From UHGV virus genome UHGV-0147861: a stretch of 15,782 bases of DNA. One strand, written 5' to 3'. The notes below the pieces were generated by a model. That model saw nothing but the letters and a program-made list of their open reading frames with translations, did not search any database and was not told the origin of the DNA. How positions within the stretch are numbered: position 1 is the stretch's first letter; every line of letters begins with the position of its first letter. This stretch comes from a virus. This document shows, piece after piece, positions 1 through 15,782 of the stretch. The position numbers and the translations under genes were made by a program.

Positions 1-2
1 CT

Positions 3-563
3 ATTACCAAAGAGCGACTGCTGACAATCAAGCAGTGGCGCGAAACATACGGACCGGGTAGCAACGTTGTACTGCCAGCAGAAGAAGCGGAAGAACTGGC
101 ACGAATTGCTCTGGCATCGCTGGAAGCAGAGCCTGTAAACCAAACTTACAACTTACCAGAATTAATCGAAGGCATGGAAGTTTCCATTGATGTAAGCACT
201 TGTGATGCTGATTTAGGTAATCGCTATTTCGGCACCGTCACCGAGGCGTTAGAACTTGATACAGCCAAGAATGGTTACATCCTCCTGGTTCAGGACGCAG
301 AGCCAAACTTCGATGTAAATGGCAACTCTCCGGTAACTCCGGATGGCTGGATAAGCTGTAGTGAGCGAATGCCGGATACCAAAACAGCCGTTCTTGTTGC
401 CAGGGAGTTTGACAGGAAAGGTGACTGGCGAATGAAATGGGCGACTTACATCCCGGGGCATCCTGACGCTAATGATGGGTGGGTAATACCTGGTGCGTCG
501 TGGATACCATCACACTGGATGCCGCTACCAGAACCGCCGCAGGAGGCGAAAAGATGGATGTAA
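3..563 (+). CDS. Phage protein with C-terminal DUF551-like domain; 5' end lies outside the window
   Basis: Reading frame is open from the window edge with no stop until TAA 561-563; track ORF 174..563 is only the portion after the first internal Met. C-terminal motif DGWISCSERMPD...SHWMPLPEPP matches the pattern I recall for DUF551 phage proteins. Confidence 0.6.
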   Translation: MTKERLLTIKQWRETYGPGSNVVLPAEEAEELARIALASLEAEPVNQTYNLPELIEGMEVSIDVSTCDADLGNRYFGTVTEALELDTAKNGYILLVQDAEPNFDVNGNSPVTPDGWISCSERMPDTKTAVLVAREFDRKGDWRMKWATYIPGHPDANDGWVIPGASWIPSHWMPLPEPPQEAKRWM

Positions 564-811
564 AAGAGAAGGTTTTGCAGGTGATGCGTTACCGGGCTGC
601 CCTGCAAGATAAAGCTCTCGGCGGGGAATATCCATTCAGGATGGCAACCTGGAATCTGCGGTTGGCAATGGAGAAGGCATTTCCTGATGAAGAATGGCGT
701 TCGGCAGATTTGCGCAAAATTCTTATGGAGCTGGCTAAAGACGGAACAGTATCCAAAGATACCCATGCCAGCCGGATTGGTCAGGCGGTATGGAGACTGG
801 AGGTGAGGTAA
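554..811 (+). CDS. Hypothetical small phage protein (85 aa)
   Basis: ATG at 554 preceded by AGGAGG at 541-546; same frame as track ORF 479..811 but avoids a long overlap with the upstream gene; stop TAA 809-811. Confidence 0.5.
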   Translation: MDVKEKVLQVMRYRAALQDKALGGEYPFRMATWNLRLAMEKAFPDEEWRSADLRKILMELAKDGTVSKDTHASRIGQAVWRLEVR

Positions 812-1092
812 TGGCTAACCTGCAACTTGCCGTTAAAGGTGAATACTTCGATGCCATGATTCGCGGGGAGAAAACGGAAGAGTATCGCCTGTGTAATGAC
901 TACTGGAATAAGCGCCTCGTTAACCGTAAGTATTACCGCCTGATTATCACAAAGGGATATCCGAAGCGCAAAGACTTCAGTCGCAGAATTGACGTCCCGT
1001 ATAACGGATATGAAATAAAAACAATCACACATCCACACTTCGGTGATAAACCGGTAAAGGTGTTCGCGATAAAAGTGAAGATTAATAGCTAA
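811..1092 (+). CDS. Small ASCH/PUA-like protein (93 aa), tentative
   Basis: ATG 811 overlaps the upstream stop (TAATG); GGAGGTGAGG at 799-808. Motif GEKTEEYR resembles the GxKxxExR signature of ASCH domains; family assignment is from memory only. Confidence 0.5.
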   Translation: MANLQLAVKGEYFDAMIRGEKTEEYRLCNDYWNKRLVNRKYYRLIITKGYPKRKDFSRRIDVPYNGYEIKTITHPHFGDKPVKVFAIKVKINS

Positions 1093-1115
1093 ATTTCAAT
1101 TAACACGGAGTAATT

Positions 1116-1409
1116 ATGTGGCGCGGTAATAATCATGGCGGAAGTCAGATGATACTTACCGAATATACGTTCGACCACAAAACCAATAAATCACGTTCAG
1201 TATATTTGCTTCGGCACAATAGCCGTGTAAGAAATACCGTTCTGGAGCAAAATCTGACCGTTGAAATGGATAATTTGGGAAACTTCAAGCCAACAATATC
1301 GCTTGATGATTTTCCGTGTGGTTTAAGCGAAAGAGAAGCAATGCTGAAATTAGCAGAATGGCTACAAAGATTAAGCATTGCTATTGAAGATAACTGGTCT
1401 GAACCTTAA
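1116..1409 (+). CDS. Hypothetical protein (97 aa)
   Basis: ORF with GGAG at 1106-1109 upstream of ATG 1116; same orientation and tight spacing with neighbours; no recognisable motif. Confidence 0.45.
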   Translation: MWRGNNHGGSQMILTEYTFDHKTNKSRSVYLLRHNSRVRNTVLEQNLTVEMDNLGNFKPTISLDDFPCGLSEREAMLKLAEWLQRLSIAIEDNWSEP

Positions 1410-1415
1410 ATTAAT

Positions 1416-1790
1416 ATGATGACACTAAAACATTTTCTTGACCGCCCATTATGGGCGGCAGCCGCAGGCTATGACTTTAATTATATGGATTGCATGTCTT
1501 ATACTGCCAATGCATACGACCATTCGTTCAGCCTGCTGTTTAATTCTTTAAGAATATTGCCGGAAACAGAAGTTGGAGAGCTTCATTTATGGATATTGGG
1601 CTTTATCGCGGCTGGAGTTGGTATTGCCGTATGGCCTTTTATTTTCTGGCTGGTGGCTGTTGTAGTGTGGTTTAAGTGCAAGACGTACCGGAGAAAGTAT
1701 TTCTTAGGTGATGGAATGACTGATATTGCCAAAATGAACATTGAAAAATGGACTAAGGAATGTGAAAAGAAATGGCGCAAAAAGAAATGA
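1416..1790 (+). CDS. Small membrane protein (124 aa)
   Basis: ORF with a long hydrophobic stretch LWILGFIAAGVGIAVWPFIFWLVAVVVWF and a lysine-rich C-terminus; no clear RBS, so the start is uncertain. Confidence 0.45.
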   Translation: MMTLKHFLDRPLWAAAAGYDFNYMDCMSYTANAYDHSFSLLFNSLRILPETEVGELHLWILGFIAAGVGIAVWPFIFWLVAVVVWFKCKTYRRKYFLGDGMTDIAKMNIEKWTKECEKKWRKKK

Positions 1791-2710
1791 CCAGAATCAC
1801 TGAAGAGCGTATATCAGAGATTATTTCCCGTATCGAAATGTATGGTCACGGTGCTGGATATACGGCAGATGAAGTATTGGCACTTGCCCAAATGGTTTTG
1901 GCGGCTTGCAAAGATGATAAAAAAATGAAGTTTATCGACTTGTTAGTGAAGGAGCTGCCTAAGTGCGGCGGGTGGCCTGATGGAATGAGTTATTGTTACC
2001 TACCCAGTGTCAATTTAATGGCACCATGCGCGACTTTTGCTTTTGGCTCAGACCACAAAAAAGACACTTTCTTTGGGCGCAATTTTTGTTGTGATATTGA
2101 GCTTCCAATTGGTGACCTTGATAGCGATGAATACCAGTCAGTTGTCACTCGCGAACAATACGAATCAGCTCTCATAGCGTCGCAGAAAGTCGAGTTCAAT
2201 GGTGATGAACTTGAAAGTAAGACTTACAGGTTGGATTTTGGGCAATGGCTGGAACAGCAACGCGGGAAAATCGATGTGGACTGTGGTTGTGTGTCCACTG
2301 AAACATTCATGCACTGGCTGCGGGTAGCTTACGAGGCTGGCAACTATCCGGATATTCCGGATAGTTCGGTGCCAGCGCCAGGAAAGGGCGTCACCGGTGA
2401 ACGTATCCGCATTAAGCCGCATGTTTATCGCGAACTGGTTAACCGTCTCCACGATACAGCGATCAAGTGTGCTGGCACCCAGCAATTACGAGAAAGAATT
2501 AGCCGTGTTTTGGGCGACGTTATTACGCCATATCATCATAAACAAGCCGAGAAAAGCGGTCTGGAAAGGTGTCGCCTTGAGGCGGCATTAAACATTAAGC
2601 CGGGGCATACGCTTGGCATTATTGATGCACTATTGGTTCATAAGATGGCCAGGGCTTTATTGCCGCTGGTGGCTGAAAAGCATGAGGTGGACCATGCCAA
2701 CGAAAGCTGA
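1772..2710 (+). CDS. Hypothetical Cys-rich protein (312 aa)
   Basis: Long ORF in the same operon-like array; an alternative start at ATG 1787 overlaps the upstream stop (ATGA). No recognised domain. Confidence 0.55.
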   Translation: MAQKEMTRITEERISEIISRIEMYGHGAGYTADEVLALAQMVLAACKDDKKMKFIDLLVKELPKCGGWPDGMSYCYLPSVNLMAPCATFAFGSDHKKDTFFGRNFCCDIELPIGDLDSDEYQSVVTREQYESALIASQKVEFNGDELESKTYRLDFGQWLEQQRGKIDVDCGCVSTETFMHWLRVAYEAGNYPDIPDSSVPAPGKGVTGERIRIKPHVYRELVNRLHDTAIKCAGTQQLRERISRVLGDVITPYHHKQAEKSGLERCRLEAALNIKPGHTLGIIDALLVHKMARALLPLVAEKHEVDHANES

Positions 2711-2978
2711 ATTACAGGTGCGCGTAGATGAGCTTGAAAAAGAGAACGCGAGCCTCAAAAAAATGCTGTCGCGGGCGGAAAGGGAATTATCAGGCAAATT
2801 ATTGCCAGAAGAACTGCCACCAGCAGATATACCTGATCGAGTGTCCTGGTGGATGAAGTATTTCCGTGCACCGTGGGAGGCGTTTTGGTGCTACGACCAT
2901 CGCAGATGGTGTGATGAACTTGATAGCAATTTTCCCTACTTTGCGGAAGGGAACACCTGCCCTCAATGCAGGGGATAG
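2694..2978 (+). CDS. Hypothetical protein with coiled-coil N-terminus and C-terminal Cys/His cluster (94 aa)
   Basis: ATG 2694 preceded by GAGGTGG at 2684-2690, same frame as track ORF 2613..2978; sequence ELQVRVDELEKENASLKKML then WCYDHRRWC...CPQC suggests a zinc-ribbon-like tail. Confidence 0.5.
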   Translation: MPTKAELQVRVDELEKENASLKKMLSRAERELSGKLLPEELPPADIPDRVSWWMKYFRAPWEAFWCYDHRRWCDELDSNFPYFAEGNTCPQCRG

Positions 2979-3313
2979 CATTTGACGAAATCGATCACCC
3001 TATCCTGAACTTCAGAAAGAAGGTCTTTTTCACGCGCCAGGACGTCAGGATATTGACGTTCTGGCCTTACCAGATGCCGGAGCTTCCCATTAAGCAGAAT
3101 GGCCTCAGAAAACACTTTTACGCTGTGCTTTATCCCCTCTGTTTCACTTTTCAGCGTCAAAATAAAGCGCAATTGCTTATTAGCCTGATTCGGATTCAAT
3201 ACACGAATTTGCAGTTCGTCTATGCTGTTCCGCAATGGGATTGATGCTACCACACTGGTGCAGTCTCTGATTGTCTGAATTGAACGGCTAACATTGAGAA
3301 CGTTATTGTGCAT
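2963..3313 (-). CDS. Hypothetical protein (116 aa), convergent with upstream array
   Basis: Minus-strand ORF filling the gap between the 2694..2978 gene and hot; weak RBS; competes with plus-strand ORF 2966..3244. Low confidence. Confidence 0.3.
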   Translation of the reverse strand: MHNNVLNVSRSIQTIRDCTSVVASIPLRNSIDELQIRVLNPNQANKQLRFILTLKSETEGIKHSVKVFSEAILLNGKLRHLVRPERQYPDVLAREKDLLSEVQDRVIDFVKCYPLH

Positions 3314-3345
3314 GTGCCTGATCCACTAACTCCTGGAGGTTTCTT

Positions 3346-3597
3346 GTGTCAGATCGAAATATAGCAGCTAAAAGCCAGGAAGAGCGAGACAAGGTGAACG
3401 TAGACCTTGCCGCCAGCGGCGTTGCTTACAAAGAACGGCTGAATATACCTGTGATTGCAGAGCAGGTGGCTCGTGAGCAACCGGAAAACCTGCGCGCCTA
3501 TTTCATGGAACGGCTACGGCACTACCGGCAGTTAAGCCTCCAGTTGCCAAAAGGGAGCGATCCGGTGTATCAGAACGAGGATGCACCAAAAAAATAA
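3346..3597 (+). CDS. hot: DNA polymerase III theta-subunit homolog (P1 Hot-like)
   Basis: GTG start with GGAGG at 3335-3339; motif [43 protein letters not shown] aligns with E. coli HolE (theta) as I recall it; 83 aa matches P1 Hot. Confidence 0.85.
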
Positions 3598-3656
3598 CGG
3601 CAAGATGGGGGAGAAATGTGATTAGCCCCCAGCGTGGCGCGCCTACAAACCCCGCT

Positions 3657-3702
3657 TTCACAAACTATGCCTTTTCAATGTATACTGTATGAATAAACAG
3701 TA
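3657..3702 (+). promoter_or_regulatory. Putative humD promoter with LexA (SOS) box
   Basis: TACTGTATGAATAAACAGTA at 3683-3702 fits the LexA consensus CTGT-N8-ACAG exactly; -35-like TTCACA 3657-3662 and -10-like TATACT 3681-3686 (18-nt spacer) overlap it, about 20 nt upstream of the humD ATG. Confidence 0.7.
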
Positions 3703-3720
3703 TCATTGAGGTAAAACGCT

Positions 3721-4110
3721 ATGGGCTTCCCTTCTCCTGCGGCGGATTATGTTGAAAGCCGAATTTCTCTTGATCAGCAGATAATTAGACATCCTTCAGC
3801 GACCTACTTCATGCGGGCAGCTGATAGCCATCACCGTGAGGGAATATTGCAGGGAGCTTTGCTGGTGGTTGATTCCTCGCTTACTCCGGTTGATGGTTCT
3901 CTGCTTGTGTGCGCTATGGAGGGTGAATATCGCATAAAGAGATACAGGAAGTATCCGCGCCAGCACCTGGAGGACTTAAGCACCGGGAAGAAAGAGGCGT
4001 TACCAGTAGATGACGATGGATACACGGGCAGCAATGCTGTTTTTGGTGTGATCACTCATGTCATCAATGATGCCCGAAGTGGGGAGTTTGATGATTGTCC
4101 GGTTATTTAA
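3721..4110 (+). CDS. humD: UmuD'-like SOS mutagenesis protein (P1 HumD-like)
   Basis: Protein begins MGFPSPAADYVESRISLDQQIIRHPSATYF, matching UmuD from its Cys24-Gly25 cleavage site onward; Ser (AADSH) and Lys (RIKRY) align with the UmuD S60/K97 dyad; C-terminal FGVITHVI conserved. Confidence 0.9.
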   Translation: MGFPSPAADYVESRISLDQQIIRHPSATYFMRAADSHHREGILQGALLVVDSSLTPVDGSLLVCAMEGEYRIKRYRKYPRQHLEDLSTGKKEALPVDDDGYTGSNAVFGVITHVINDARSGEFDDCPVI

Positions 4111-4145: not shown

Positions 4146-4182
4146 TATAATTGTGTACACATAACGAGTACATGAGGTGTTT
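4146..4182 (+). promoter_or_regulatory. Putative phd-doc promoter/operator
   Basis: Perfect -10 TATAAT at 4146-4151 immediately followed by the 10-bp palindrome TGTGTACACA (4152-4161) and a second partial GTAC-containing site, upstream of the phd ATG; consistent with autoregulation by Phd at palindromic sites. Confidence 0.5.
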
Positions 4183-4404
4183 ATGCAATCCATTAACTTC
4201 CGTACCGCGCGCGGCAACCTTTCTGAAGTGCTCAACAATGTTGAAGCCGGGGAAGAGGTTGAAATCACCCGCAGAGGCCGTGAGCCAGCAGTAATTGTCA
4301 GCAAGGCTACTTTTGAAGCCTACAAAAAAGCGGCGCTGGATGCTGAATTTGCATCCCTGTTTGACACCCTGGACTCCACCAACAAGGAACTGGTTAACCG
4401 ATAA
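4183..4404 (+). CDS. phd: Antitoxin Phd (prevent host death)
   Basis: [73 protein letters not shown] matches my memory of P1 Phd (73 aa); ATG 4183 with GAGGTG RBS (track ORF starts 6 nt earlier at GTG). Confidence 0.92.
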
Positions 4405-4784
4405 TGAGGCATATATCACCGGAAGAACTTATTGCGCTTCATGATGCGAATATAAACCGCTACGGCGGCCTGCCGGGAATGTCTGATCCGGGTAGGGCAG
4501 AGGCCATTATCGGGAGAGTTCAGGCCAGAGTTGCCTACGAAGAGATCACCGACCTTTTCGAAGTCTCCGCCACCTACCTGGTGGCTACAGCGAGAGGGCA
4601 TATATTCAATGATGCCAATAAGCGTACCGCGCTAAACAGTGCGCTGCTATTTCTACGCCGTAACGGGGTGCAGGTATTTGATTCACCTGAACTGGCAGAC
4701 CTTACCGTAGGGACTGCGACAGGCGAGATATCTGTATCTACTGTCGCCGCCACGTTACGTAGATTGTATGGTTCTGCGGAGTAG
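4404..4784 (+). CDS. doc: Toxin Doc (death on curing), Fic-fold kinase
   Basis: [17 protein letters not shown]...[23 protein letters not shown] matches P1 Doc (126 aa) including the Fic-like HxFx(D/N)xNKR motif; start overlaps the phd stop (TAATG). Confidence 0.92.
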
Positions 4785-4995: not shown

Positions 4996-6039
4996 GTGAA
5001 AGCCGTAATTACTCCCTTTGTACAGAAAGAGCTTGGCCTCGCCACGTTCAAAGTGGATCAGGAGGTCAGAAAGCTGGTGGAGGCTGGCCGTAAATTTATT
5101 ATGGAGCCGGTGCCGCGTGAGTTAATCGAGCACATGGAAGACGGCCTCGTTGTTACCGAGCAAACCATGGCAACAAATGAGGCGTTGCAGCCGTTTTTTA
5201 ACAGCGATGAACTGTTTCGCCGTATTGGTGGAATTGACTCGCTGGTGGCGTGGTTGCGCAGGAAAGAGGGGCAATGCCAGGCCGCAGATCGTAGCTGGTG
5301 TGACAACCATATTGTCCACGCAGAACGAGACAATAGCGCGGTGTTGTTGTGCTGGCATCACGATAACCATTACCGGATGCGTGGTTTTAATGAGCTGAAA
5401 GAAACGCTGCACAATAATCGCGTTAACTGGATACTGGATGTCGCCCGTCAGGAAATGGGCCTTTCAAATAGCCATGATTTAAGTATTCAGGAGCTGTGCT
5501 GGTGGGCTTTCATGCGCAACATGATGCACCTGATGCCGGAAGAAGTCTGCCGCATATCAATAAATAAGATGAAGGCTACTCCGCAGGATAGCGGACCTCT
5601 GAAAGAGGCGGATATTCGCCCGTATGACGATCGCGCTACAGCATATGTTCAGATGATGGAAGAACGCGCCGCGCCGATGCGTGCAAAAGTATGCCCTGTG
5701 GATGTTGACTCCGACCCAGGTATGGCGCATTTCAAAATACCAAAACTTCAATCGCTAAAATTGCCCGAGTACATGGACTTTGTGGCTTCCCGTCCATGCT
5801 GTGGCTGTGGAGCTGCGGGAGCTGGCGCTCACATTACGCCTTATATCGTTCGTCATAGTCGATTATGCGCGCATGACATTTATGCTATTCCTCTGTGCCA
5901 GTCATGCCAGCGTGATATTGAGCGTGACCGCGATAATTGGGAGAAGACGCACGGTAGGCTGGCGATGCATCAACGATTGTTCTTTGATTACGCGCTTGGA
6001 GTCGGCGCTATCACAAGTCACTCGTCGAGCGTTAGATAA
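4996..6039 (+). CDS. pdcB: PdcB-like protein with HNH-like Cys/His clusters (347 aa)
   Basis: Long ORF with GTG start; motifs [13 protein letters not shown]...CWHHDNHY and C-terminal CCGCG...H...LCAHD...CQSCQ resemble HNH/zinc-finger nuclease signatures. Gene name inferred from position after doc. Confidence 0.65.
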
Positions 6040-6127: not shown

Positions 6128-6580
6128 ATGTTACTTAACTGGCAGGGACGCCACTTCATGGAAATAAATCACTCACGAATAACATCGTACGAGATTGCGG
6201 ATTACATGATCCGCACTAAATCTCTTCTATCAGCGAAAGAGCTCGCAGCAATTCTTGAAAAGGAATACCCGCATCTGGATGTCGATAAGCGCGATGTTTA
6301 TCTGCGCTTAAAGGCTATCGCTGTGTCTAAGTATTCGTCTGTTTTGATTGATGACAGTACACGCCCACGTAGATTTCAGATCCACTCTCTGAATCCTGAA
6401 TTCTTTCGCCGTAGCCGCGCTCCGCGCCGGTTTGATGAAAAACTCCAGAACGAACTCTATATGACGCAGGACGAAAAGGAACGCCGGGAGCACCAGCCTT
6501 GGGTAATGGCGCGTCAACTTTTCAATAAGGTGGCCCGTCAGCACCGTCATTACGGTAATGCCACATCCGCACGTATCTGA
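6128..6580 (+). CDS. lpa: Late promoter activator (Lpa / gp10-like)
   Basis: 150-aa ORF immediately upstream of pacA, preceded by a C1 operator-like site, as in P1; basic protein; AGGTGA RBS before ATG 6128. Assignment mainly by synteny and size. Confidence 0.7.
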   Translation: MLLNWQGRHFMEINHSRITSYEIADYMIRTKSLLSAKELAAILEKEYPHLDVDKRDVYLRLKAIAVSKYSSVLIDDSTRPRRFQIHSLNPEFFRRSRAPRRFDEKLQNELYMTQDEKERREHQPWVMARQLFNKVARQHRHYGNATSARI

Positions 6581-6665
6581 TTGATTGCTTGCCCGTTCCG
6601 GGCCTTTTGACATGTGACTTTCGTTACCCTCGCGTCAAAAAGAGTTTTTACGAAAGGAAGCATAA

Positions 6666-7859
6666 GTGACCTGGGACGATCACAAGAAGAATTTTGCTCG
6701 CCTGGCGCGAGATGGTGGTTACACCATCGCACAGTATGCCGCCGAGTTTAATCTTAACCCTAATACTGCACGTCGTTATCTCCGTGCCTTCAAAGAAGAC
6801 ACCAGGACAGCGGACAGCCGCAAGCCAAATAAGCCAGTCAGGAAGCCACTAAAAAGCATGATCATTGATCACTCTAATGATCAACATGCAGGTGATCACA
6901 TTGCGGCTGAAATAGCGGAAAAACAAAGGGTTAATGCCGTTGTCAGTGCCGCAGTCGAGAACGCTAAGCGCCAAAATAAGCGCATAAATGATCGTTCTGA
7001 TGATCATGACGTGATCATCCGCGCCCACCGTACCTTACGTGATCGCCTGGAACGCGACACCCTGGATGATGATGGTGAACGCTTTGAATTCGAAGCTGGC
7101 GATTACCTGATAGATAACGTTGAAGCGCGGAAGGCCGCGCGCGCTATGTTGCGTCGGTCCGGGGCCGATGTTCTGGAAACCACTCTTCTGGAAAAGTCTC
7201 TTTCTCATCTCCTTATGCTGGAGAACGCCAGGGATACGTGTATTCGCCTGGTGCAGGAAATGCGCGATCAGCAAAAAGACGATGATGAAGGTACTCCGCC
7301 TGAATACCGTATCGCGAGCATGCTAAACAGCTGTTCCGCGCAGATAAGCAGCCTGATCAACACCATTTACAGCATCCGGAATAACTATCGAAAAGAAAGC
7401 CGGGAGGCGGAAAAGCACGCTTTGTCTATGGGGCAAGCTGGCATTGTTAAGCTGGCATACGAACGAAAGCGTGAAAATAACTGGTCAGTGCTGGAAGCAG
7501 CTGAATTCATCGAGGCGCATGGCGGGAAAGTGCCGCCCCTGATGCTGGAGCAAATCAAAGCCGATCTGCGTGCTCCTAAGACCAATACCGATGATGAGGA
7601 AAGGCAAACTGCCGTCGGTGGCCCTTCTCTTGAAGATCTGGACAAAGTTGCGCGAGAACGGGCCGCCAACCGCCGCGCCGATGCCGCATTGTGGATTGAG
7701 CAACGTAGGGAAGAAATCGCCGATATCGTTGATACAGGCGGTTATGGAGATGTTGATACTGAAGGTGTATCAAACGACCCATGGCTGGAACAAGACCTGG
7801 ACGAAGACGAGGAGGAAGACGAAGAAGTTACCCGCAAGCTATACGGGGATGATGATTAA
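6666..7859 (+). CDS. pacA: Terminase small/pac-recognition subunit PacA
   Basis: 397-aa ORF with GTG start and AGGAAG RBS; contains the pac hexamer arrays in its 5' third; acidic [10 protein letters not shown]-terminus; directly followed by pacB with a 1-nt overlap. Confidence 0.85.
6859..7017. other. pac packaging site: two arrays of TGATC(A/G) hexamers
   Basis: Four TGATCA copies at 6859-6864, 6866-6871, 6878-6883, 6893-6898 and three TGATC(A/G) copies at 6989-6994, 7001-7006, 7012-7017, about 90 bp apart; each contains a Dam GATC site. Matches the described P1 pac architecture. Confidence 0.8.
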
Positions 7860-9343
7860 TGGCCAGAAGTTGCGTAACGGATCCACGTTGGCGCGAGCTG
7901 GTGGCGCTATATCGTTATGACTGGATTGCGGCCGCTGATGTTTTGTTCGGCAAAACACCTACCTGGCAGCAGGATCTGATTATTGAGTCTGTGCAGGAAC
8001 AGGGTAGCAAGACATCTGTTTCGTCTGGTCACGGTACCGGGAAATCAGACATGACTTCTATCATGATCATGTTGTTCATAATCATGTATCCCGGTGCCCG
8101 CGCCATTATCGTTGCGAACAAAATTCAGCAGGTAATGACCGGTATATTCAAGTACATCAAGATAAACTGGGCTACTGCCACCAGCCGTTTTCCATGGCTT
8201 GCTGATTATTTTGTTCTGACAGAAACCGCTTTCTATGAGGTTACTGGTAAAGGTGTATGGACTGTAGTACCGAAGGGCTTTCGTCTGGGAAGTGAAGAAG
8301 CTCTCGCCGGTGAACACGCAGATCATCTTCTGTATATTATCGATGAAGCCTCCGGTGTCAGTGATAGAGCTTTCGGTATCATCACCGGTGCTCTTACCGG
8401 ACAGGATAACCGCATCTTATTACTGTCACAGCCTACACGCCCAAGCGGCTATTTCTACGATACTCACCATAAACTGGCCAAGCGTCCTGGTAACCCAGAT
8501 GGCGTTTATACGGCGATCACGCTTAACAGTGAGGAATCACCGCTGGTAACGCCAGAATTTATCAAAATGAAGCTGGCGGAGTACGGCGGGCGTGATAACC
8601 CTATGTACATGATTAAGGTACGCGGGCTATTCCCTAAATCACAGGACGGCTTCCTTCTTGGACGTGATGAGGTTGAACGTGCGACGCGGCGGAAAGTCAA
8701 GATTGCCAAAGGATGGGGCTGGCTTGCATGTGTGGACGTTGCTGGTGGTACAGGACGGGATAAGTCCGTTATCAATATCATGATGGTGTCCGGCCAGCGA
8801 AATAAACGCCGTGTAATCAACTATCGAATGCTGGAATACACAGACGTTACAGAAACGCAGCTTGCCGCCAAAATTTTCGCAGAATGTAATCCTGAGCGAT
8901 TCCCCAATATCACCATAGCGATAGACGGCGATGGCCTGGGTAAAGCAACGGCGGATCTGATGTACGAGTATTATGGTATTACCGTACAGCGTATACGCTG
9001 GGGTAAAAAGATGCATAGCCGTGAAGATAAGAGCCTGTACTTTGATAAACGTGCTTATGCCAATGTTCAAGCCGCAGAGGCCGTAAAATCTGGTCGTATG
9101 AGACTGGATAAGGGTAATGAAACTATTGAGGAAGCGTCGAAAATCCCTGTAGGGATTAACTCCGCAGGTCAATGGAAGGTGATGAGTAAGGAGGATATGA
9201 AGAAAAAACTCAACCTGCACTCACCAGACCATTGGGATACATATTGTTTCGCTATGCTGGCGGATTATGTTCCCCAGGATGAAGTGCTTAGCGTCGAAGA
9301 CGAAGCGCAGGTTGATGAAGCTCTGGCATGGCTTAATGAATGA
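7859..9343 (+). CDS. pacB: Terminase large subunit PacB
   Basis: 494-aa ORF; Walker A-like GHGTGKS near the N-terminus, Walker B-like [11 protein letters not shown]-terminal nuclease-like region; start overlaps the pacA stop. Confidence 0.9.
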
Positions 9344-9346
9344 ATA

Positions 9347-9363
9347 TTTGCTCTAATAAATTG
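9347..9363 (+). promoter_or_regulatory. C1 operator-like site upstream of the immI module
   Basis: TTTGCTCTAATAAATTG matches 15/17 of the C1 operator consensus; located 4 nt after the pacB stop and upstream of the c4/icd/ant region. Confidence 0.5.
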
Positions 9364-9495
9364 TGTTTTTTAGCTACCGATGCTACATTGAACCTGACCT
9401 CTTGCGCCTTGTGGCATTTTCGGTTTATGCTTATCAGGCACCTCATTAAAACGGGTGCCGGGATTGAGACCCCGGATAATGCAAAAGGCGACACA

Positions 9496-9517
9496 GACGC
9501 CAAAAGCGTCTTTTTTT
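9496..9517 (+). terminator. Possible intrinsic terminator or attenuator hairpin
   Basis: GACGC-CAAAA-GCGTC hairpin (9496-9510) followed by a run of seven T (9511-9517); the stem is short, so strength is uncertain. Confidence 0.35.
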
Positions 9518-9554
9518 GTGTCATGCCATCGCACAGCCATACGTAGCGTTTAGC

Positions 9555-9650
9555 TCAGAGATCAATGGTAGTGCTGGCTGGGCTGCCGAAAGGCAGGCCG
9601 GTTCCCTTTTGCGCCGGTAGTCTCAACCCAGTCAGTGCTACCGCCATTGA
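9555..9650 (+). ncRNA. c4: c4-like antisense RNA (immI repressor RNA), boundaries approximate
   Basis: Structured region with a GNRA-capped hairpin (CUGCC-GAAA-GGCAG, 9583-9596) and a long G-U-containing stem. Two elements are complementary to the downstream leader: 9636-9643 GCUACCGC pairs with 9665-9672 GCGGUAGC, and 9563-9571 CAAUGGUAG pairs with 9695-9703 CUGCCAUUG, bracketing the icd RBS and start codon. Confidence 0.5.
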
Positions 9651-9702
9651 GATTGAGACCTCACGCGGTAGCTCCTTAAATTAGCAAAAGGAGGCTGCCA
9701 TT

Positions 9703-9924
9703 GTGGCTACTATCCCTACCCCTGCTCATCCTGAATTTATCTGGCGCTTTTACTCCTGCCAAAAACGTCACTATCACTTCGTTATTGCACCGACAGAAGA
9801 TGAGGCACGTTCTCAGCTTCCTGACGCCCCATGTATTTTCTCTGCCCGTTTTTCCACTGATTCACACAATTCTCTCAGTTACTGGTGCCTCCCTGTTAAC
9901 GCTTCTGCTCTGGAGGGGCTATGA
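9703..9924 (+). CDS. icd: Icd-like small protein (73 aa), translationally coupled to ant
   Basis: GTG 9703 preceded by AAAGGAGG at 9687-9694; stop overlaps the ant ATG (ATGA, 9921-9924); size and position match the P1 icd gene as I recall it. The protein sequence itself is not recognised. Confidence 0.55.
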   Translation: MATIPTPAHPEFIWRFYSCQKRHYHFVIAPTEDEARSQLPDAPCIFSARFSTDSHNSLSYWCLPVNASALEGL

Positions 9925-11036
9925 GAACATCATTAGTCACCCGTAAAGAAATGATCGAGGCAATTGAACAGCACACTGCCTGTATCAGTACCAGGGATAT
10001 ACCTGGCGTTATTGCCAACTACTTCATGATCACCAAACAACTTTACCGGAGAAAGGACAAAAACGCGGTTCACCGCATTCTGCTAACCGATATCCGTGAA
10101 TACCTGCTCGAACAGGGTCATCTGAATTACGCAACCGTCGCAGCCGAAGCACGCAAGGAGGCACACAGAATGAAAGCAACTAACGTTAAATCAGAAAAAA
10201 CTCATGCACCTTCAGTTCAGGAATCGGAGCTGGTGGTTGTTCAGAATCAGTCTGATGAAATTCCCGTTCTGGAATGGCTGGGAGTGCGTGTAGTGACAAC
10301 TAAGATCCTTGCTAAGGGGTATGGGACAGATGCGGATAACATCAAGAAGAACTTTTCCCGTAATGCTGAACGTTTTTGTGAAGGCAAGCATTTCTATAAA
10401 GTTATTGGAGATGATTTGAACAATTTGCGGGTGACTTTAAGTAACTCACAAAATCCTATCTCTCCTAAAGCCCGCTCACTCATCCTCTGGACGGAACGCG
10501 GCGCAGCCCGCCACGCTAAAATGATCGAAACCGATCAGGCATGGGCATTCTTTGAAAAACTGGAAGACAGCTACTTCCGACAAAAAGAACAGCAACCGAT
10601 CGCAATCCCCCAGACGCTTCCAGAAGCTCTGCGCCTTGCTGCCGAACTGGCTGAACAAAAGCAACTTCTGGAACAGAAAGCCCATCAGCTAAATCAGCAG
10701 CTGGTGGCCGCAGCCCCCAAAGTCGATTTTGCCGACCGGGTATCAGTGGCTAAGGGGATCCTGATTGGGAATTTTGCAAAGGTCGTTGGACTTAAACAAA
10801 ATGCGCTGTTTGCCTGGTTACGGGAGAACGGCATTCTGATAGCGTCCGGCGGCCGTAAAAATGTACCGTTCCAGCAGTACATAAACGCCGGATATTTCAC
10901 AGTGAAAGAAGTGGTGCTGGATGATGAAGAGGGCTACCAGATACGGCTGACGCCCCAATTAACGGGGAAAGGCCAACAGTGGTTGACGCGTAAACTGCTC
11001 GATGCTGGCTTGTTAAAACCGGTGGCGGCTGAATAA
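9921..11036 (+). CDS. ant: Antirepressor Ant (Ant1; in-frame internal start at 10170 gives Ant2)
   Basis: 371-aa ORF with phage antirepressor-type N- and C-terminal regions (C-terminal KilA-C/ANT-like segment PKVDFADRVSVAKGILIGNFAKVVGLKQNALFAWLRENGIL). Internal ATG 10170 has AAGGAGG at 10155-10161 and would give a 288-aa product; the size ratio matches P1 Ant1/Ant2 (about 42/32 kDa). Confidence 0.8.
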   Translation: MRTSLVTRKEMIEAIEQHTACISTRDIPGVIANYFMITKQLYRRKDKNAVHRILLTDIREYLLEQGHLNYATVAAEARKEAHRMKATNVKSEKTHAPSVQESELVVVQNQSDEIPVLEWLGVRVVTTKILAKGYGTDADNIKKNFSRNAERFCEGKHFYKVIGDDLNNLRVTLSNSQNPISPKARSLILWTERGAARHAKMIETDQAWAFFEKLEDSYFRQKEQQPIAIPQTLPEALRLAAELAEQKQLLEQKAHQLNQQLVAAAPKVDFADRVSVAKGILIGNFAKVVGLKQNALFAWLRENGILIASGGRKNVPFQQYINAGYFTVKEVVLDDEEGYQIRLTPQLTGKGQQWLTRKLLDAGLLKPVAAE

Positions 11037-12578: not shown

Positions 12579-12613
12579 TGATTTTTGTGCGCAGCTGGAC
12601 GTAAACTCCTCTT

Positions 12614-12651
12614 GGGGGAACCGCAGAATTCGGAAAAAATCGTACGCTAAG
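12614..12651. repeat. 38-bp terminal inverted repeat of a Tn3-family (Tn1721/Tn21-group) transposon
   Basis: GGGGGAACCGCAGAATTCGGAAAAAATCGTACGCTAAG begins with GGGG and ends ...ACGCTAAG, the hallmark of Tn21/Tn1721-group IRs, and is close to the Tn1721 IR as I remember it. It is immediately flanked on the left by AT-rich P1-like DNA. Confidence 0.85.
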
Positions 12652-12802
12652 CTAACGGTGTTCTCGTGACAGCTCTTTGACTAGGCTTTCTAAGGCCATT
12701 CTGATAGCCCTGACTTCCTGAAAAGCCATGGCTAAAATTTGTGCGGCTAAAAGGGATAACCGATGGTAAAGTAAGTTATCCCTGTCGAGATACTGAAAAG
12801 CG

Positions 12803-14380
12803 TTATCCTCGTTTTTCCCAAAACTGTTTTGCCAGTTCGCTCAGAGCGCTAGTTAACTGAGCGACAGATTTCGCACTTTGCAAATTATTCTGCCCGGTCT
12901 GTACATTGGTATCAGCAGCATCGCGTATATTGATAATACTGCGGTTTATGTCTTCACTTACTGCTCCCTGCTGCTCGACCGCAGTCGCTATTTGCGCGTT
13001 CATGTCGGTAATTTCGTTAACGCGTTGGCCAATTCCATCAAGAGCTGTAGCTGCTTCCTCTGCGTGAGCTACACTCGTGTGCGCTTGCCGACTACTTTGC
13101 TCCATGACTGTAACAGCGGATTGCGCTCGCTCTTGTAGAGCGCTGATCATGCTTTGAATATCCGTTGTCGATTGCTGTGTGCGAGCAGCAAGACTGCGAA
13201 CCTCATCGGCGACAACAGCAAAACCACGCCCCTGCTCACCAGCACGCGCGGCCTCAATTGCTGCGTTGAGTGCCAACAAATTCGTTTGCTCGGCGATCCC
13301 TCGTATAACGTCAAGAACTTTTGATATCTCGTTACTTTGACCTTCAAGCTCATGAATAACCTGAGTGGCTTGCCTAATTTCACCTTCAAGGGCAGTGATT
13401 GACTGGCTTGTGTGGGCTACCAGACGCTGGCCAGATGCCGTCTCAGTGTCTGCTCTTCCGGCCGCATCTGCAGCATGCTGTGCATTGCTCGCAACCTCTT
13501 GAATGCTTGCCACCATTTGGTTTACTGCCGTTGCTATTTGATCTGTCTCTGCCTGCTGCTCAACTGTAAGTACATTGCTTGACTCAATATCCTTTAGTAG
13601 GCCTCGGGTGTGTTCGCTAAGCCGATTTGATGCATCACCTATGCGACCTACTATGGCGCCTGTTTCAGCTTGCATCATTCGTAAAGCAAACTCTATTTGG
13701 CCAAACTCATCGGTGCGCCCAGTGTAGAGGGATTGACTTAATGGGTTATTGGAAATATTCCTGGCTCTTTCAACCAGTCTTCCAAGAGGAGAGAGAATAG
13801 CCAAAACACTAACAGAGCTTAAGCTTCCTGACATTAAAGTGGCTAACAATAAGCTGCTTATTGATGTATCAGTAAGCATGCCGGCAGCCATTGCGCTTGA
13901 TATAATACTACCCCATATGAGCAAGAGTATTTTCACGGAAAAGCTAGCAGCCAATTTCGGCCTCGCGGCCTTCCCGCTTCTCAATTGAGCATATAATTTT
14001 TCCGCAGCCAAAACCTGCTCAGGTTCAGGCTTGGTCCTTACAGACTGGTATTCAACAATCGAACCATTCTTAGCTATTGGCGTTACATAAGCACTTACCC
14101 AATAGTGGTCGCCATTTTTACAGCGATTTTTTACTAGCCCCATCCATGAGCGGCCAGATTTTAATGTACTCCACATATGCTCAAATGCAGCAGGCGGCAT
14201 ATCTGGGTGTCTTACGATGTTGTGAGGCTGGCCTAATAGTTCTTCCTCAGTGAAACCACTGATTTTAATGAAGTCAGGATTAACGTACGTGATATGGCTT
14301 TGAGGGGAGGTAGTCGAAAGAATATTGGCATCTTTTGGGAGTTCTAAGTTTCGACCCGTCACTGGTAAATTCTGGCGCAT
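12803..14380 (-). CDS. Methyl-accepting chemotaxis protein, Aer-like (PAS + HAMP + MCP signalling domain)
   Basis: N-terminal PAS-like region ([31 protein letters not shown]), hydrophobic segments, and the highly conserved MCP signalling motif [42 protein letters not shown]; corresponds to the orfI chemoreceptor-like gene of Tn1721. Confidence 0.9.
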
Positions 14381-14519
14381 AAGAACCTCAAGGGTTGGCT
14401 GTTTTATTTTATTGTTTTCGGCATTAAGCCCAATTTCTTGAGCGTTACGATAAAGCTAGCATGGAAACGATAGGTGCAAGCAAGTTAAGGGTTGCATCGC
14501 GCATGTCAATCTAGGCTAT

Positions 14520-14689
14520 ACCCTAACTTGATGTCAGGCAGGGCCGCGCCGCTTCGTCAGAATAGAGTCTGCTTTCCCATTTTTTGACACATGCCCGCGA
14601 AGGTTATAGATTTCAGCCTGACAGAAATGGGCTTTGAGGCACAACGGAACAGAAAGTGCACTTAAGCCGCCTTCAACCAAGGAGACATC
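14520..14689. promoter_or_regulatory. Putative res (resolution) site region and tnpR/mcp divergent promoter region
   Basis: Intergenic region between divergent mcp and tnpR containing repeated TGTCAG/CTGACA-type half-sites (TGTCAGGC 14532-14539, CGTCAGAA 14555-14562, TTTGACAC 14583-14590, CCTGACAGAA 14617-14626), the position where Tn3-family res sites lie. Subsite boundaries not resolved. Confidence 0.55.
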
Positions 14690-15250
14690 GTGCAGGGGCA
14701 CCGCATCGGCTACGTCCGGGTCAGCAGCTTTGACCAGAACCCGGAACGCCAGCTGGAACAAACCCAGGTGAGCAAGGTGTTCACCGACAAGGCATCGGGC
14801 AAGGACACCCAGCGCCCCCAGCTCGAAGCGCTGCTGAGCTTCGTCCGCGAAGGCGATACAGTGGTGGTGCACAGCATGGATCGGCTGGCCCGCAACCTCG
14901 ATGACCTGCGTCGCTTGGTACAGAAGCTGACTCAGCGCGGCGTGCGCATCGAGTTCCTGAAGGAGGGCCTGGTGTTCACTGGCGAGGACTCGCCGATGGC
15001 CAACCTGATGCTGTCGGTGATGGGGGCCTTCGCTGAGTTCGAGCGCGCCCTGATCCGCGAGCGGCAGCGTGAGGGCATCGCCTTGGCCAAGCAGCGTGGC
15101 GCGTACCGGGGCCGCAAGAAAGCCCTGTCCGATGAGCAGGCTGCTACCCTGCGGCAGCGAGCGACGGCCGGCGAGCCCAAGGCGCAGCTTGCCCGCGAGT
15201 TCAACATCAGCCGGGAAACCCTCTACCAGTACCTCCGCACGGACGACTGA
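14690..15250 (+). CDS. tnpR: Serine recombinase resolvase TnpR
   Basis: 186-aa protein with the resolvase N-terminal catalytic motif GYVRVSSFDQNPERQ and C-terminal HTH; GTG start with AAGGAG RBS at 14679-14684; matches Tn1721-group TnpR. Confidence 0.95.
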   Translation: MQGHRIGYVRVSSFDQNPERQLEQTQVSKVFTDKASGKDTQRPQLEALLSFVREGDTVVVHSMDRLARNLDDLRRLVQKLTQRGVRIEFLKEGLVFTGEDSPMANLMLSVMGAFAEFERALIRERQREGIALAKQRGAYRGRKKALSDEQAATLRQRATAGEPKAQLAREFNISRETLYQYLRTDD

Positions 15251-15253
15251 CAC

Positions 15254-15782
15254 ATGCCGCGTCGCTTGATCCTCTCGGCCACGGAGCGGGACACCCTGCT
15301 TGCGCTGCCGGAAAGCCAGGATGACCTGATCCGCTACTACACCTTCAACGACTCCGACCTGTCGCTGATCCGCCAGCGACGCGGCGACGCCAACCGCCTC
15401 GGCTTCGCCGTGCAGCTCTGCCTGCTGCGCTACCCCGGTTACGCGCTGGGAACCGACAGCGAGCTGCCCGAGCCGGTCATCCTGTGGGTGGCGAAGCAAG
15501 TCCAGGCCGAGCCGGCGAGCTGGGCAAAGTACGGCGAGCGCGACGTGACCCGTCGCGAGCATGCCCAGGAACTGCGCACCTACCTGCAACTGGCCCCGTT
15601 CGGCCTGTCCGACTTCCGCGCCCTGGTGCGCGAGCTAACCGAGCTGGCCCAGCAGACCGACAAAGGCTTGCTGCTGGCCGGTCAGGCCCTGGAGAGCCTA
15701 CGGCAGAAACGACGCATCCTGCCGGCGCTGAGCGTGATTGACCGGGCCTGCTCGGAAGCCATTGCGCGAGCCAATCGGCGGG
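15254..15782 (+). CDS. tnpA: Tn3-family transposase TnpA, N-terminal 176 codons (3' end outside window)
   Basis: ATG 15254 four nt after the tnpR stop; translation [62 protein letters not shown]... matches the conserved N-terminus of Tn21/Tn1721-type TnpA; frame is open to the window end. Confidence 0.9.

Follow-up and report, generated by a model that had tools for sequence, protein, structure and literature searches.

The first 3.3 kb of the window (the whole stretch of DNA that was analysed, 15,782 nt) represent a known kind of variable accessory array, which, as judged from sequence comparisons, presents catalogued proteins in a new mosaic order. The window is part of a P1-like phage-plasmid. 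It is 98.8% identical to RCS47 over 78% of positions 1-3600, and the order of the flanking genes hot, humD, phd, doc, pdcB, lpa and pacAB follows that of P1. According to the account that we consider probable, positions 1-3313 correspond to the distal 3.3 kb of an accessory array between pap and hot that would be expressed early and controlled by C1.

Positions 1-3313 comprise eight genes, seven of which are co-oriented and tightly packed, while one (H) lies on the opposite strand. A preliminary description of this DNA had counted seven or eight small, packed and mostly co-oriented genes with one convergent ORF, and this picture holds. The gene models agree with the PGAP annotation of near-identical plasmids; the start of gene A was placed by comparison with a gene at 2994-3533 of the related locus L006. 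The features are as follows:

1-563, plus strand: gene A, DUF551 protein, start codon 7 nt upstream of the window
554-811, plus strand: gene B, 85 aa, 'eaa'
811-1092, plus strand: gene C, 93 aa
1116-1409, plus strand: gene D, 97 aa
1416-1790, plus strand: gene E, 124 aa
1772-2710, plus strand: gene F, 312 aa with 10 Cys, alternative ATG at 1787
2694-2978, plus strand: gene G, 94 aa
2963-3313, minus strand: gene H, 116 aa
3314-3345, no strand: divergent H-hot intergenic spacer, 32 bp, with the hot ribosome-binding site GGAGG
3346-3597, plus strand: hot, homologous to the theta subunit of DNA polymerase III, at the array's distal end
3357-3365, minus strand: candidate extended -10 promoter for H (TGCTATATT), read by eye inside the 5' end of hot

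The sequence bears out the overlapping starts that had been noted earlier. The overlaps amount to 10 nt for A/B, 1 nt for B/C, 19 nt for E/F (4 nt if the alternative start of F is used) and 17 nt for F/G; the gaps between C and D and between D and E measure 23 and 6 nt. The convergent genes G and H share 16 nt, and H and hot diverge, 32 bp apart. This arrangement suggests that B is translationally coupled to A, and overlapping stop and start codons would couple translation in the array more generally. That the eight ORFs are more than chance reading frames is confirmed by PHROG matches, purifying selection and in-frame indels in H. All eight proteins match PHROG profiles end to end (E 1e-46 to 1e-84). 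Pooled against homologous loci, with hot as control gene (0.08), the pN/pS values of A to H range from 0.13 to 0.48, i.e. the genes are under purifying selection (A 0.13; B 0.48; C 0.22; D 0.19, over nine loci; E 0.31; F 0.37; G 0.26; H 0.19). A coding signal, the lack of which had been named as a possible refutation, is present in the alignments.

The block had been regarded as unrecognised, a view that has to be given up: it takes up hypervariable region 8, which has been described for P1-like phage-plasmids as spanning pmgT to humD (PMC9603915), in the slot between pap and hot. Hot lies directly downstream in the window, as expected for a member of region 8 and the pmgT operon; the upstream end of the array falls outside the window and is seen in the collinear RCS47, L002, L004 and pEc1077-100. 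In P1, the pap-hot slot holds pmgT-pmgU-pmgV-upfM/N/O in the same orientation and with the same C1 operator, OpmgT, which for the array in the window is seen in relatives. The synteny comparison with P1 reveals a variable gene block, in which the PmgU domain and Hot are the only shared parts. Residues 195-295 of F, i.e. its C-terminal third only, are 93% identical to residues 1-101 of the annotated P1 PmgU, and Hot is 93% identical to P1 Hot. The earlier statement that none of the proteins is a characterised P1 function thus fails for this domain of F, and the alternative that all ORFs are conserved, annotated P1 genes applies to this domain alone, the others having been replaced: in place of the N-terminal part of pmgT, pmgV and upfM/N/O the window carries A-E, the N-terminal two-thirds of F, G and H. 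Moreover, the late promoter LPhot and lxr of P1 are absent from the window, and in P1 a vestige of the beginning of G persists behind pmgV. P1 pmgT, pmgU, pmgV, upfN, upfO and hot are non-essential according to CRISPRi and deletion.

Near-identical arrays are already annotated in RCS47 and many plasmids, and each of the seven complete proteins has its exact sequence in public databases. RCS47 (gp049-gp055), pEc1077-100 (NZ_CP159212), pZ1322PEC0253-2 (CP148519) and NZ_CP059910 p3 have genes, order and junctions as in the window, with 97-100% nucleotide identity over the shared segments and annotations as DUF551, eaa, ASCH and hypothetical proteins. They differ from it by whole modules, namely the middle of A, the presence of C and the Cys-rich module of F, and none of them contains 100% of positions 1-3600 (best 95%). 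The gene order is rare, since the whole stretch occurs in no complete E. coli genome (best coverage 95%). Breakpoints among the related arrays fall at gene or domain borders, and relatives harbour Ead_Ea22 and DUF1382 (lambda orf63-like) genes within the same array. These comparisons show that the array evolves by exchanging modules with lambdoid prophages and other phage-plasmids, the joints lying at the borders of genes and domains.

The lambdoid contribution is most evident at the left end, where positions 1-1082 are about 94% identical to Stx phages; A, B and C share about 90-94% DNA identity with the exo-xis segments of these phages. The homologous segment of VT2-Sakai, located between xis and exo, encodes a single protein, in which DUF551 is fused to an ASCH-like segment. 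The assignment of A as a DUF551 protein proved correct, with a PF04448 score of 75.1 bits against a gathering threshold of 22 (E=8.4e-21; aa 115-180, profile positions 1-68 of 68); A also matches phrog_60 (E=5e-59). Its sequence indicates an Ea22/EaA-type modular protein ending in DUF551. Neither A nor F matches the Ead/Ea22-like Pfam family PF13935; the two have only a short N-terminal segment in common (phrog_3323, phrog_60), and true Ead_Ea22 genes are located upstream in relatives. Mosaic joints in A lie at 136/321 and 373/515, and only the two ends of DUF551 are conserved. B matches phrog_2814 over its full length (E=6e-51), is about 94% identical at the nucleotide level to Stx-converting phages, and is found as an exact sequence in NCBI under the name 'eaa protein'.

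C (phrog_625, E=1e-47) had been described as possibly ASCH/PUA-like, and profile searches, which returned Pfam DUF551 for A and PHROG matches for all proteins, do not fully bear this out. The Pfam ASCH profile (PF04266) scores 14.1 bits, below the cutoff of 21.2, and aligns at profile positions 1-23 only; diverged homologues of C likewise remain below the threshold. On the other hand, C possesses the octapeptide GxKxxExR, which is the ASCH motif (PMC6803910), as G19-E-K21-T-E-E24-Y-R26 of the GKER subtype, invariant in five homologues. Sequence comparison finds no relative of C in the PDB; in VT2-Sakai orf4, the C-terminal part matches C with 86% identity and is joined to DUF551 in one protein. 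C would be a mini ASCH-like protein, putatively binding RNA or nucleotides or acting as a deacylase. D (phrog_1258, E=3e-49) is widespread in temperate enterobacterial phages, with tblastn matches in N15, phiKO2, P22-like and lambdoid phages. E (phrog_2638, E=8e-63), with homologues in only 16 phage records, has a single hydrophobic stretch at aa 53-89 (maximal Kyte-Doolittle value over 19 residues 2.38) and a basic C-terminal tail, in keeping with the small membrane protein that had been proposed. The exo-xis region of lambda and Stx phages and the array in the window have in common that they are early, dispensable and mosaic, and that an N-terminal segment is combined with portable C-terminal domains. 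However, the array in the window resides in a plasmid-prophage and would be controlled by C1, whereas lambda exo-xis is under the CI/PL-N system, and D-H have no counterpart in the lambda cassette.

F, correctly described as a Cys-rich protein of 312 aa, is modular: it combines an Ea22-like segment at the N-terminus, a Cys-rich alpha/beta module (aa 45-133) that is optional, a core that is invariant (KIDVDCGCVS...HWLRVAYEAGN) and the PmgU C-terminal domain. Its family has 790 members of 182-450 aa in which modules are present or absent. The AlphaFold model is confident for aa 45-133 only and mostly of low confidence, and a fold search in BFVD yielded only uncharacterised phage proteins. G (phrog_3797, E=1e-59) has the anticipated N-terminal coiled coil, followed by a C-terminal zinc-knuckle motif (C65-x2-H68...C88-x2-C91) with Cys/His residues conserved in alignment A3, rather than a classical zinc ribbon. 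Since in-frame F-G fusions (P0126, P0178) occur in two different F backgrounds, G probably works with F. A weaker lead is that the two may form a two-part module, F being an exchangeable 'head' that sits on a conserved PmgU anchor and G its zinc-knuckle partner, similar to a polymorphic effector scaffold. Frameshifts or truncations affect many of the G and H copies in databases; therefore, some of these genes may be undergoing decay in a fraction of the population.

H, a member of the phrog_2594 family, is encoded on the opposite strand, converging on G and diverging from hot. In P1-like and D6-like elements it stands head-to-head with hot across an invariant 32-bp spacer, and the spacing is identical in loci L008-L014. 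The family is almost confined to phage-plasmids; a homologue in PhiR12_1 lies beside the integrase at the prophage end and another one in SSU5 upstream of parA, both of which are moron-type positions. SSU5_031, with its 88% identical relative L018, and H both belong to phrog_2594, and L018 and H share 31% identity. The SSU5 gene is co-oriented with a partner coding for 231 aa, SSU5_032 (phrog_3307), whereas H in the window lacks a phrog_3307 partner and faces hot instead. Structure prediction for H is confident, and the fold may be a truncated GNAT-like alpha/beta one. In GNAT proteins the acetyl-CoA pyrophosphate-binding motif Q/R-x-x-G-x-G/A follows strand beta4; H lacks this motif, and alignment A4 does not show it conserved after the FIxT strand. 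The candidate H promoter at 3357-3365 was picked out by visual inspection; its -10 element was not among the results of the consensus promoter scan, and its conservation cannot be told apart from that of the hot codons (NIAAK) in which it lies. The H-hot spacer contains no -22 box of a P1-type late promoter, while the control, LPpac, was detected at 6612-6630. H is read antisense to the early accessory operon and therefore could act in the lysogenic state. It could be a regulator or inhibitor that gates the expression of hot and the early operon via transcriptional interference, or a binder of a replication or defence factor. The reading of H as an unstudied family of small, truncated GNAT-like phage-plasmid proteins that is locked with hot and perhaps serves as a lysogenic regulator or binder appears quite improbable to us.

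The control region of the array lies outside the window and is seen in relatives only. OpmgT immediately follows the stop codon of pap in RCS47 (L001 3794-3810), L002, L004 and pEc1077-100 (L023 1613-1629), and L023 has no other C1 operator before Olpa. A simple consensus scan of the plus strand of positions 1-3313, which internal promoters may escape, returned no C1 operator, sigma-70 consensus or late-promoter box. Since one C1 operator heads the array in relatives, we infer that the accessory genes form an early operon under repressor control. One rightward polycistronic unit, transcribed from a C1-operator-controlled promoter just downstream of pap, would have A to G as its tail, probably together with hot; it would stay off in the plasmid prophage and come on early upon induction or infection. 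H would be a separate, moron-like gene, which is probably expressed when the operon is repressed, because RNA polymerases transcribing it would meet those reading through from the early operon. The products would be small, non-structural proteins of the lambdoid exo-xis/'ea' kind, dispensable in the laboratory. Lambda exo-xis genes such as Ea22 affect lysogeny, and by analogy the proteins would most likely adjust host physiology or the balance between lysis and lysogeny at an early stage of development, virion morphogenesis being unlikely.

Database names point in other directions. According to the P1 names pmgT, pmgU and pmgV and the UniRef entry 'Morphogenetic protein' for F, a name propagated in RCS47 and UniRef, F and its neighbours would be morphogenetic, and F and PmgU do share the C-terminal domain. 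But pmgT, pmgU and pmgV are not needed for plaque formation, the block in the window lacks a late promoter, Pfam, PHROGs, PDB and BFVD reveal no similarity to structural proteins, and the gene content is swapped wholesale between otherwise near-identical phages, which makes this interpretation very improbable. Equally hard to credit is a toxin-antitoxin or addiction pair of G with H or F. NCBI and UniRef call G 'antitoxin PHD', G overlaps both F and H, and a genuine phd-doc pair is located 1.2 kb downstream. Yet G has no Pfam PhdYeFM (PF02604) match and hits the Phd of the window with a BLASTP E of 0.24 only; as convergent genes, G and H would not be co-transcribed, a fusion such as F-G is atypical for a toxin and its antitoxin, and G is often frameshifted with no partner seen lost alongside. 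Some ORFs, especially the antisense H, might also have arisen by chance within a regulatory spacer that precedes hot, considering that many database entries cover only the C-terminal 69 aa of H and that P1 upfM, upfN and upfO at the same spot are tiny and doubtful. This idea, to which we attach almost no probability, is for practical purposes already refuted by the pN/pS of H (0.19), its frame-preserving indels, its full-length homologues (30-45% identity) in unrelated contexts and its confident fold prediction.

It is possible, albeit unlikely, that the block is an anti-defence or host-takeover island, whose early proteins inhibit immune systems or host enzymes and whose diversity reflects an arms race. 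The block is hypervariable and located in an early operon, its proteins are small, dispensable and modular, P1/D6 elements carry several anti-defence systems elsewhere, and ASCH proteins can remove RNA modifications. However, none of the eight proteins matched any PADLOC-DB 2.0 family at E<=1, in line with the earlier finding of no known defence-system signature, although PADLOC models defence rather than anti-defence. In a DefenseFinder survey of about 1,600 P1/D6 sequences, the anti-defence systems were Dar/Ddr, Tad2, Rad, Abc2 and Mom only, and the database names of the eight proteins, which were compared as names only, match none of these. Moreover, none of the sources consulted assigns anti-defence activity to a homologue of the eight proteins, and the lambda exo-xis genes, as the closest analogues that have been studied, act on lysogeny, not immunity.

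What appeared to be an unknown block turns out to be a new mosaic arrangement of a well-known plastic slot, which is mainly a matter of bookkeeping. The labels 'pmg' for F and 'antitoxin PHD' for G are unsupported and should not be propagated. The DUF551-ASCH-like fusion yields a testable hypothesis on proteins acting together, and the F-G fusions one on partner proteins; the H family, enriched in phage-plasmids and confidently predicted, is a reasonable candidate for a small screen. The slot itself is a documented conduit for gene exchange between lambdoid prophages and phage-plasmids.

The block at positions 1-3313 comprises eight genes, on which the ORF list, the sequence and the PGAP annotation of near-identical plasmids agree.

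Genes of the block upstream of hot
1-563, plus strand: A, DUF551 protein (first 7 nt outside the window)
554-811, plus strand: B, eaa
811-1092, plus strand: C, putative ASCH-like protein
1116-1409, plus strand: D
1416-1790, plus strand: E, membrane protein
1772-2710, plus strand: F, PmgU-family protein (alternative start 1787)
2694-2978, plus strand: G, zinc-knuckle protein
2963-3313, minus strand: H, phrog_2594 protein

Neighbouring genes overlap briefly or lie no more than 23 nt apart; the convergent genes G and H share 16 nt, and H and hot diverge, 32 bp apart. Each of the eight proteins matches a PHROG family end to end (E 1e-46 to 1e-84). When each gene was compared with 14 homologous loci and the substitutions were pooled, pN/pS values of 0.13-0.48 were obtained for A-H (control hot, 0.08), and the variants of H are separated by in-frame indels. 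Because of these matches, the low pN/pS and the in-frame indels in H, A-H are to be regarded as real genes, in agreement with the preliminary description. An NCBIfam search gave no match above threshold, and a PDB sequence search with B, C, D, F, G and H returned chance-level matches only.

Megablast assigns positions 1-3600 to P1-like phage-plasmids, with Escherichia phage RCS47 as the top phage match (98.8% identity, 78% of the query); further matches are non-mobilizable plasmids of ~95 kb, which number in the hundreds and come from E. coli, Salmonella, Shigella and Klebsiella. 3' of the block, the P1 gene order is kept from hot through pacB.

Genes collinear with P1
3346-3597: hot
3721-4110: humD
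4177-4404: phd
4404-4784: doc
4996-6039: pdcB
6128-6580: lpa
6666-7859: pacA
7859-9343: pacB

In reference P1, the pap-hot interval holds pmgT, pmgU, pmgV, upfM, upfN and upfO, with the C1 operator OpmgT at its head. The region from pmgT to humD is one of eight highly variable regions among 77 P1-like phage-plasmids surveyed (PMC9603915), and pmgT, pmgU, pmgV, upfN, upfO and hot are classed as non-essential on the basis of genome-wide CRISPRi and an older survey of deletions (PMC10695390). P1 and the block have just two pieces in common, hot and the PmgU domain, which is encoded by positions 2329-2675 (residues 195-295 of F are 93% identical to PmgU). The earlier statement that no P1 function could be recognised is incomplete as regards the PmgU domain. 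All seven complete proteins are present as exact sequences in public collections, several of them on hundreds to more than 1000 contigs, under names such as 'eaa protein', 'ASCH domain-containing protein', 'hypothetical protein', 'Morphogenetic protein' and 'antitoxin PHD'. Since the slot is a published hypervariable region and its complete proteins are already in databases, the block can no longer be called unrecognised. Of 5426 complete E. coli genomes, 2801 contain fragments of 1-3600, chiefly in chromosomal prophages; only 11 carry at least 80% of it at one site, and none carries the whole stretch. The fullest coverage (95%) is found in pEc1077-100. The gene combination of the block is rare.

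A BLASTN comparison with the fetched relatives revealed breakpoints at 136/321, 373/515, 822/1110, 1791-1890/2208, ~2330, 2672-2694, 3352 and 3432, where genes or domains adjoin. A is conserved in its N-terminal segment and at both ends of DUF551, with an exchanged middle; C is a cassette that is present or replaced among relatives, and the Cys-rich module of F is gained or lost. G and H travel into D6 as one unit with the PmgU domain and the 5' end of hot.

The left part of the mosaic points to the exo-xis region of lambdoid phages. Positions 1-1082 are about 94% identical to many Stx-converting phages, and in VT2-Sakai the matching DNA is located between xis and exo. There, orf4 (locus L015, 2133-3032) encodes one 299-aa protein in which a KIDVDCGCVS motif, also found in the invariant core of F, is followed by DUF551 and then by a segment 86% identical to C. 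This orf4 is a natural fusion that joins A-, F- and C-type modules in one polypeptide. In relatives of the window, Ead_Ea22 and DUF1382 (lambda orf63-like) genes lie farther upstream in the same array. An architecture of the same kind is described in the literature on Ea22, with a variable middle between a short N-terminal segment and portable domains at the C-terminus, DUF551 among them; a pro-lysogenic effect is reported for Ea22 (PMC10834534).

A scores well over the DUF551 threshold. C reaches 14.1 bits with Pfam ASCH, below the threshold of 21.2, and has the hallmark GxKxxExR (G19, K21, E24, R26), so that we regard it as a putative ASCH-like protein. Its homologues on hand are all at least 83% identical, and a deeper profile gave nothing useful. 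ASCH proteins bind RNA or nucleotides, and according to a preprint many strip tRNA of N4-acetylcytidine. An ASCH domain in the N-terminal part of P1 PmgT was also considered, as it would make ASCH a constant of the slot; Pfam gave no match, and the idea was dropped. D is common across temperate enterobacterial phages (N15, phiKO2, P22-like and lambdoid), and E, with one 37-residue hydrophobic stretch and a basic tail, is scarce beyond P1-like elements.

The F family comprises 790 proteins of 182-450 aa without a Pfam domain. In its alignment the N-terminal segment comes in two alternative versions, one of them the A type; the core and the C-terminal module are invariant, and the Cys-rich and PmgU-start modules are optional. 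The AlphaFold model of F (mean pLDDT 49.8) is confident only at residues 45-133, the Cys-rich alpha/beta module, and a fold search in BFVD found unnamed phage proteins only as structural neighbours. The C-terminus of PmgT is an alternative frame over PmgU-coding DNA, so that P1 pmgT and pmgU read like a single F-type gene broken in two by a frameshift. In P1 (L003, NC_005856; 10489-11948) the two genes overlap by 196 nt, and an ORF in that alternative frame is also present at window 2397-2591. Furthermore, pmgV and F have an ANES-stop ending in common, and 3' of P1 pmgV the beginning of G survives as a remnant, MPTKAELQV.

The G family is small (31 clusters), and those of its contigs that are long enough to be informative (about 60-104 kb) are all P1/D6-sized. 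G has a coiled coil and a conserved C-x2-H...C-x2-C pattern, and many copies carry frameshifts. NCBI and UniRef name it 'antitoxin PHD'; this assignment was rejected, as no relationship to Phd/YefM was detectable. F and G are fused in frame in two F backgrounds, represented by P0126 (381 aa) and P0178 (285 aa), which suggests that the two proteins cooperate. The join ...LLPLVAEK/ENASLKK..., corresponding to window 2667-2748, is found in some plasmids in long and short F backgrounds (P0126, P0127, P0129, P0178); it would be explained if the DNA between two short TGAAAA(G/A) repeats had been deleted.

For H, a word-indexed search found only homologues at least 88% identical; exhaustive HMMER across 1.84 billion representatives recovered ten full-length relatives with 30-45% identity and the common motifs RSIQTIRDCT, FIxT, VKPxAE and PxxQYPE. 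These remote full-length homologues rule out that H is an ORFan or a chance ORF. The reading of H as an active GNAT was likewise rejected: the protein lacks the CoA-binding motif, and Foldseek did not support the idea. Among 50,697 phage records, just 13 contain a gene of the H family, and most of these are phage-plasmids (SSU5, an SSU5-like Klebsiella phage, D6, RCS47 and PhiR41_1). In P1-like and D6-like elements H faces hot every time, 32 bp apart, and some D6-like elements have a second paralogue in the hot-humD interval (L011 4194-4544; L014 4341-4691) that is 66% identical to the SSU5-type protein. In SSU5 (L021 5001-6157) the H-like gene is followed by its partner phrog_3307 (231 aa), and both lie upstream of parA; across SSU5-like elements (including L018 6001-7151) this partner has 231-247 aa and lies just upstream of parA. 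The partner gene was not found in the window or in the P1-like or D6-like loci. In lambdoid PhiR12_1 the H-like gene adjoins the integrase at the prophage end. The positions of the H family are moron-type.

Further differences from P1 lie outside the block. At 3598-3720, lxr, which P1 has between hot and humD, is absent; upstream of humD there are a LexA-box-like TACTGTATGAATAAACAGTA (3683-3702) and a sigma-70-like promoter (3657-3686). The pacB-c1 interval, where reference P1 has nothing, holds an extra antirepressor-type module at 9347-11036.

Antirepressor-type module
9347-9363: C1 operator
9701-9946: 81-aa ORF
9921-11036: 371-aa ORF6N + KilAC (ANT) protein

In the same place, pEc1077-100 has an annotated ash, an icd-like gene and a KilAC antirepressor. 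Just past c1/coi, where P1 has lox-cre, lies the Tn3-family transposon TnAs1 (~12601-15782); many E. coli plasmids and chromosomes have copies with 99.9-100% identity to it. The transposon carries a resolvase, the start of the transposase and a PAS/HAMP methyl-accepting chemotaxis gene (12803-14380, minus strand). The window has no lox site or half-site. Near the integrase, the D6-like loci L009 and L011-L014 have genes for a Tad2-like (PF11195) protein and a dUTPase, in line with the published finding of anti-Thoeris Tad2 in most D6 and many P1 elements; the window ORFs that were examined include neither gene.

With regard to expression, OpmgT lies directly 3' of pap in four relatives, and in the closest one, pEc1077-100, it is the sole C1 operator before Olpa. 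On the plus strand of 1-3313 no C1 operator, sigma-70 consensus or late-promoter box was found, nor was a P1-type late promoter like LPhot upstream of hot; the positive control LPpac was recovered. We infer that A-G, and probably hot, would form the tail of a single C1-repressed early operon with translationally coupled genes, and that H would be transcribed independently from the opposite strand. A possible extended -10 for H, TGCTATATT (3365-3357, minus strand), lies within the 5' end of hot; this motif was picked out by eye, and the hot coding sequence confounds any reading of its conservation. Operon read-through would be antisense to all of H, and therefore H and the operon are probably expressed reciprocally.

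By analogy only with the lambda exo-xis genes, the products might modulate host physiology or the lysis-lysogeny balance. An anti-defence role, considered in the preliminary description, is equally compatible with the layout, but no positive evidence for it was found; PADLOC defence models matched none of the block proteins, which bears out the earlier remark that a known defence signature is lacking. A morphogenetic role is unlikely, given that pmgT, pmgU and pmgV are dispensable in P1 and that a late promoter is absent.

Taken together, the block is an ordinary, already catalogued accessory region of P1-like phage-plasmids in a new mosaic arrangement. Small leads worth keeping come from the H family, from the fusions that link F to G and DUF551 to ASCH, and from database names that mislead.
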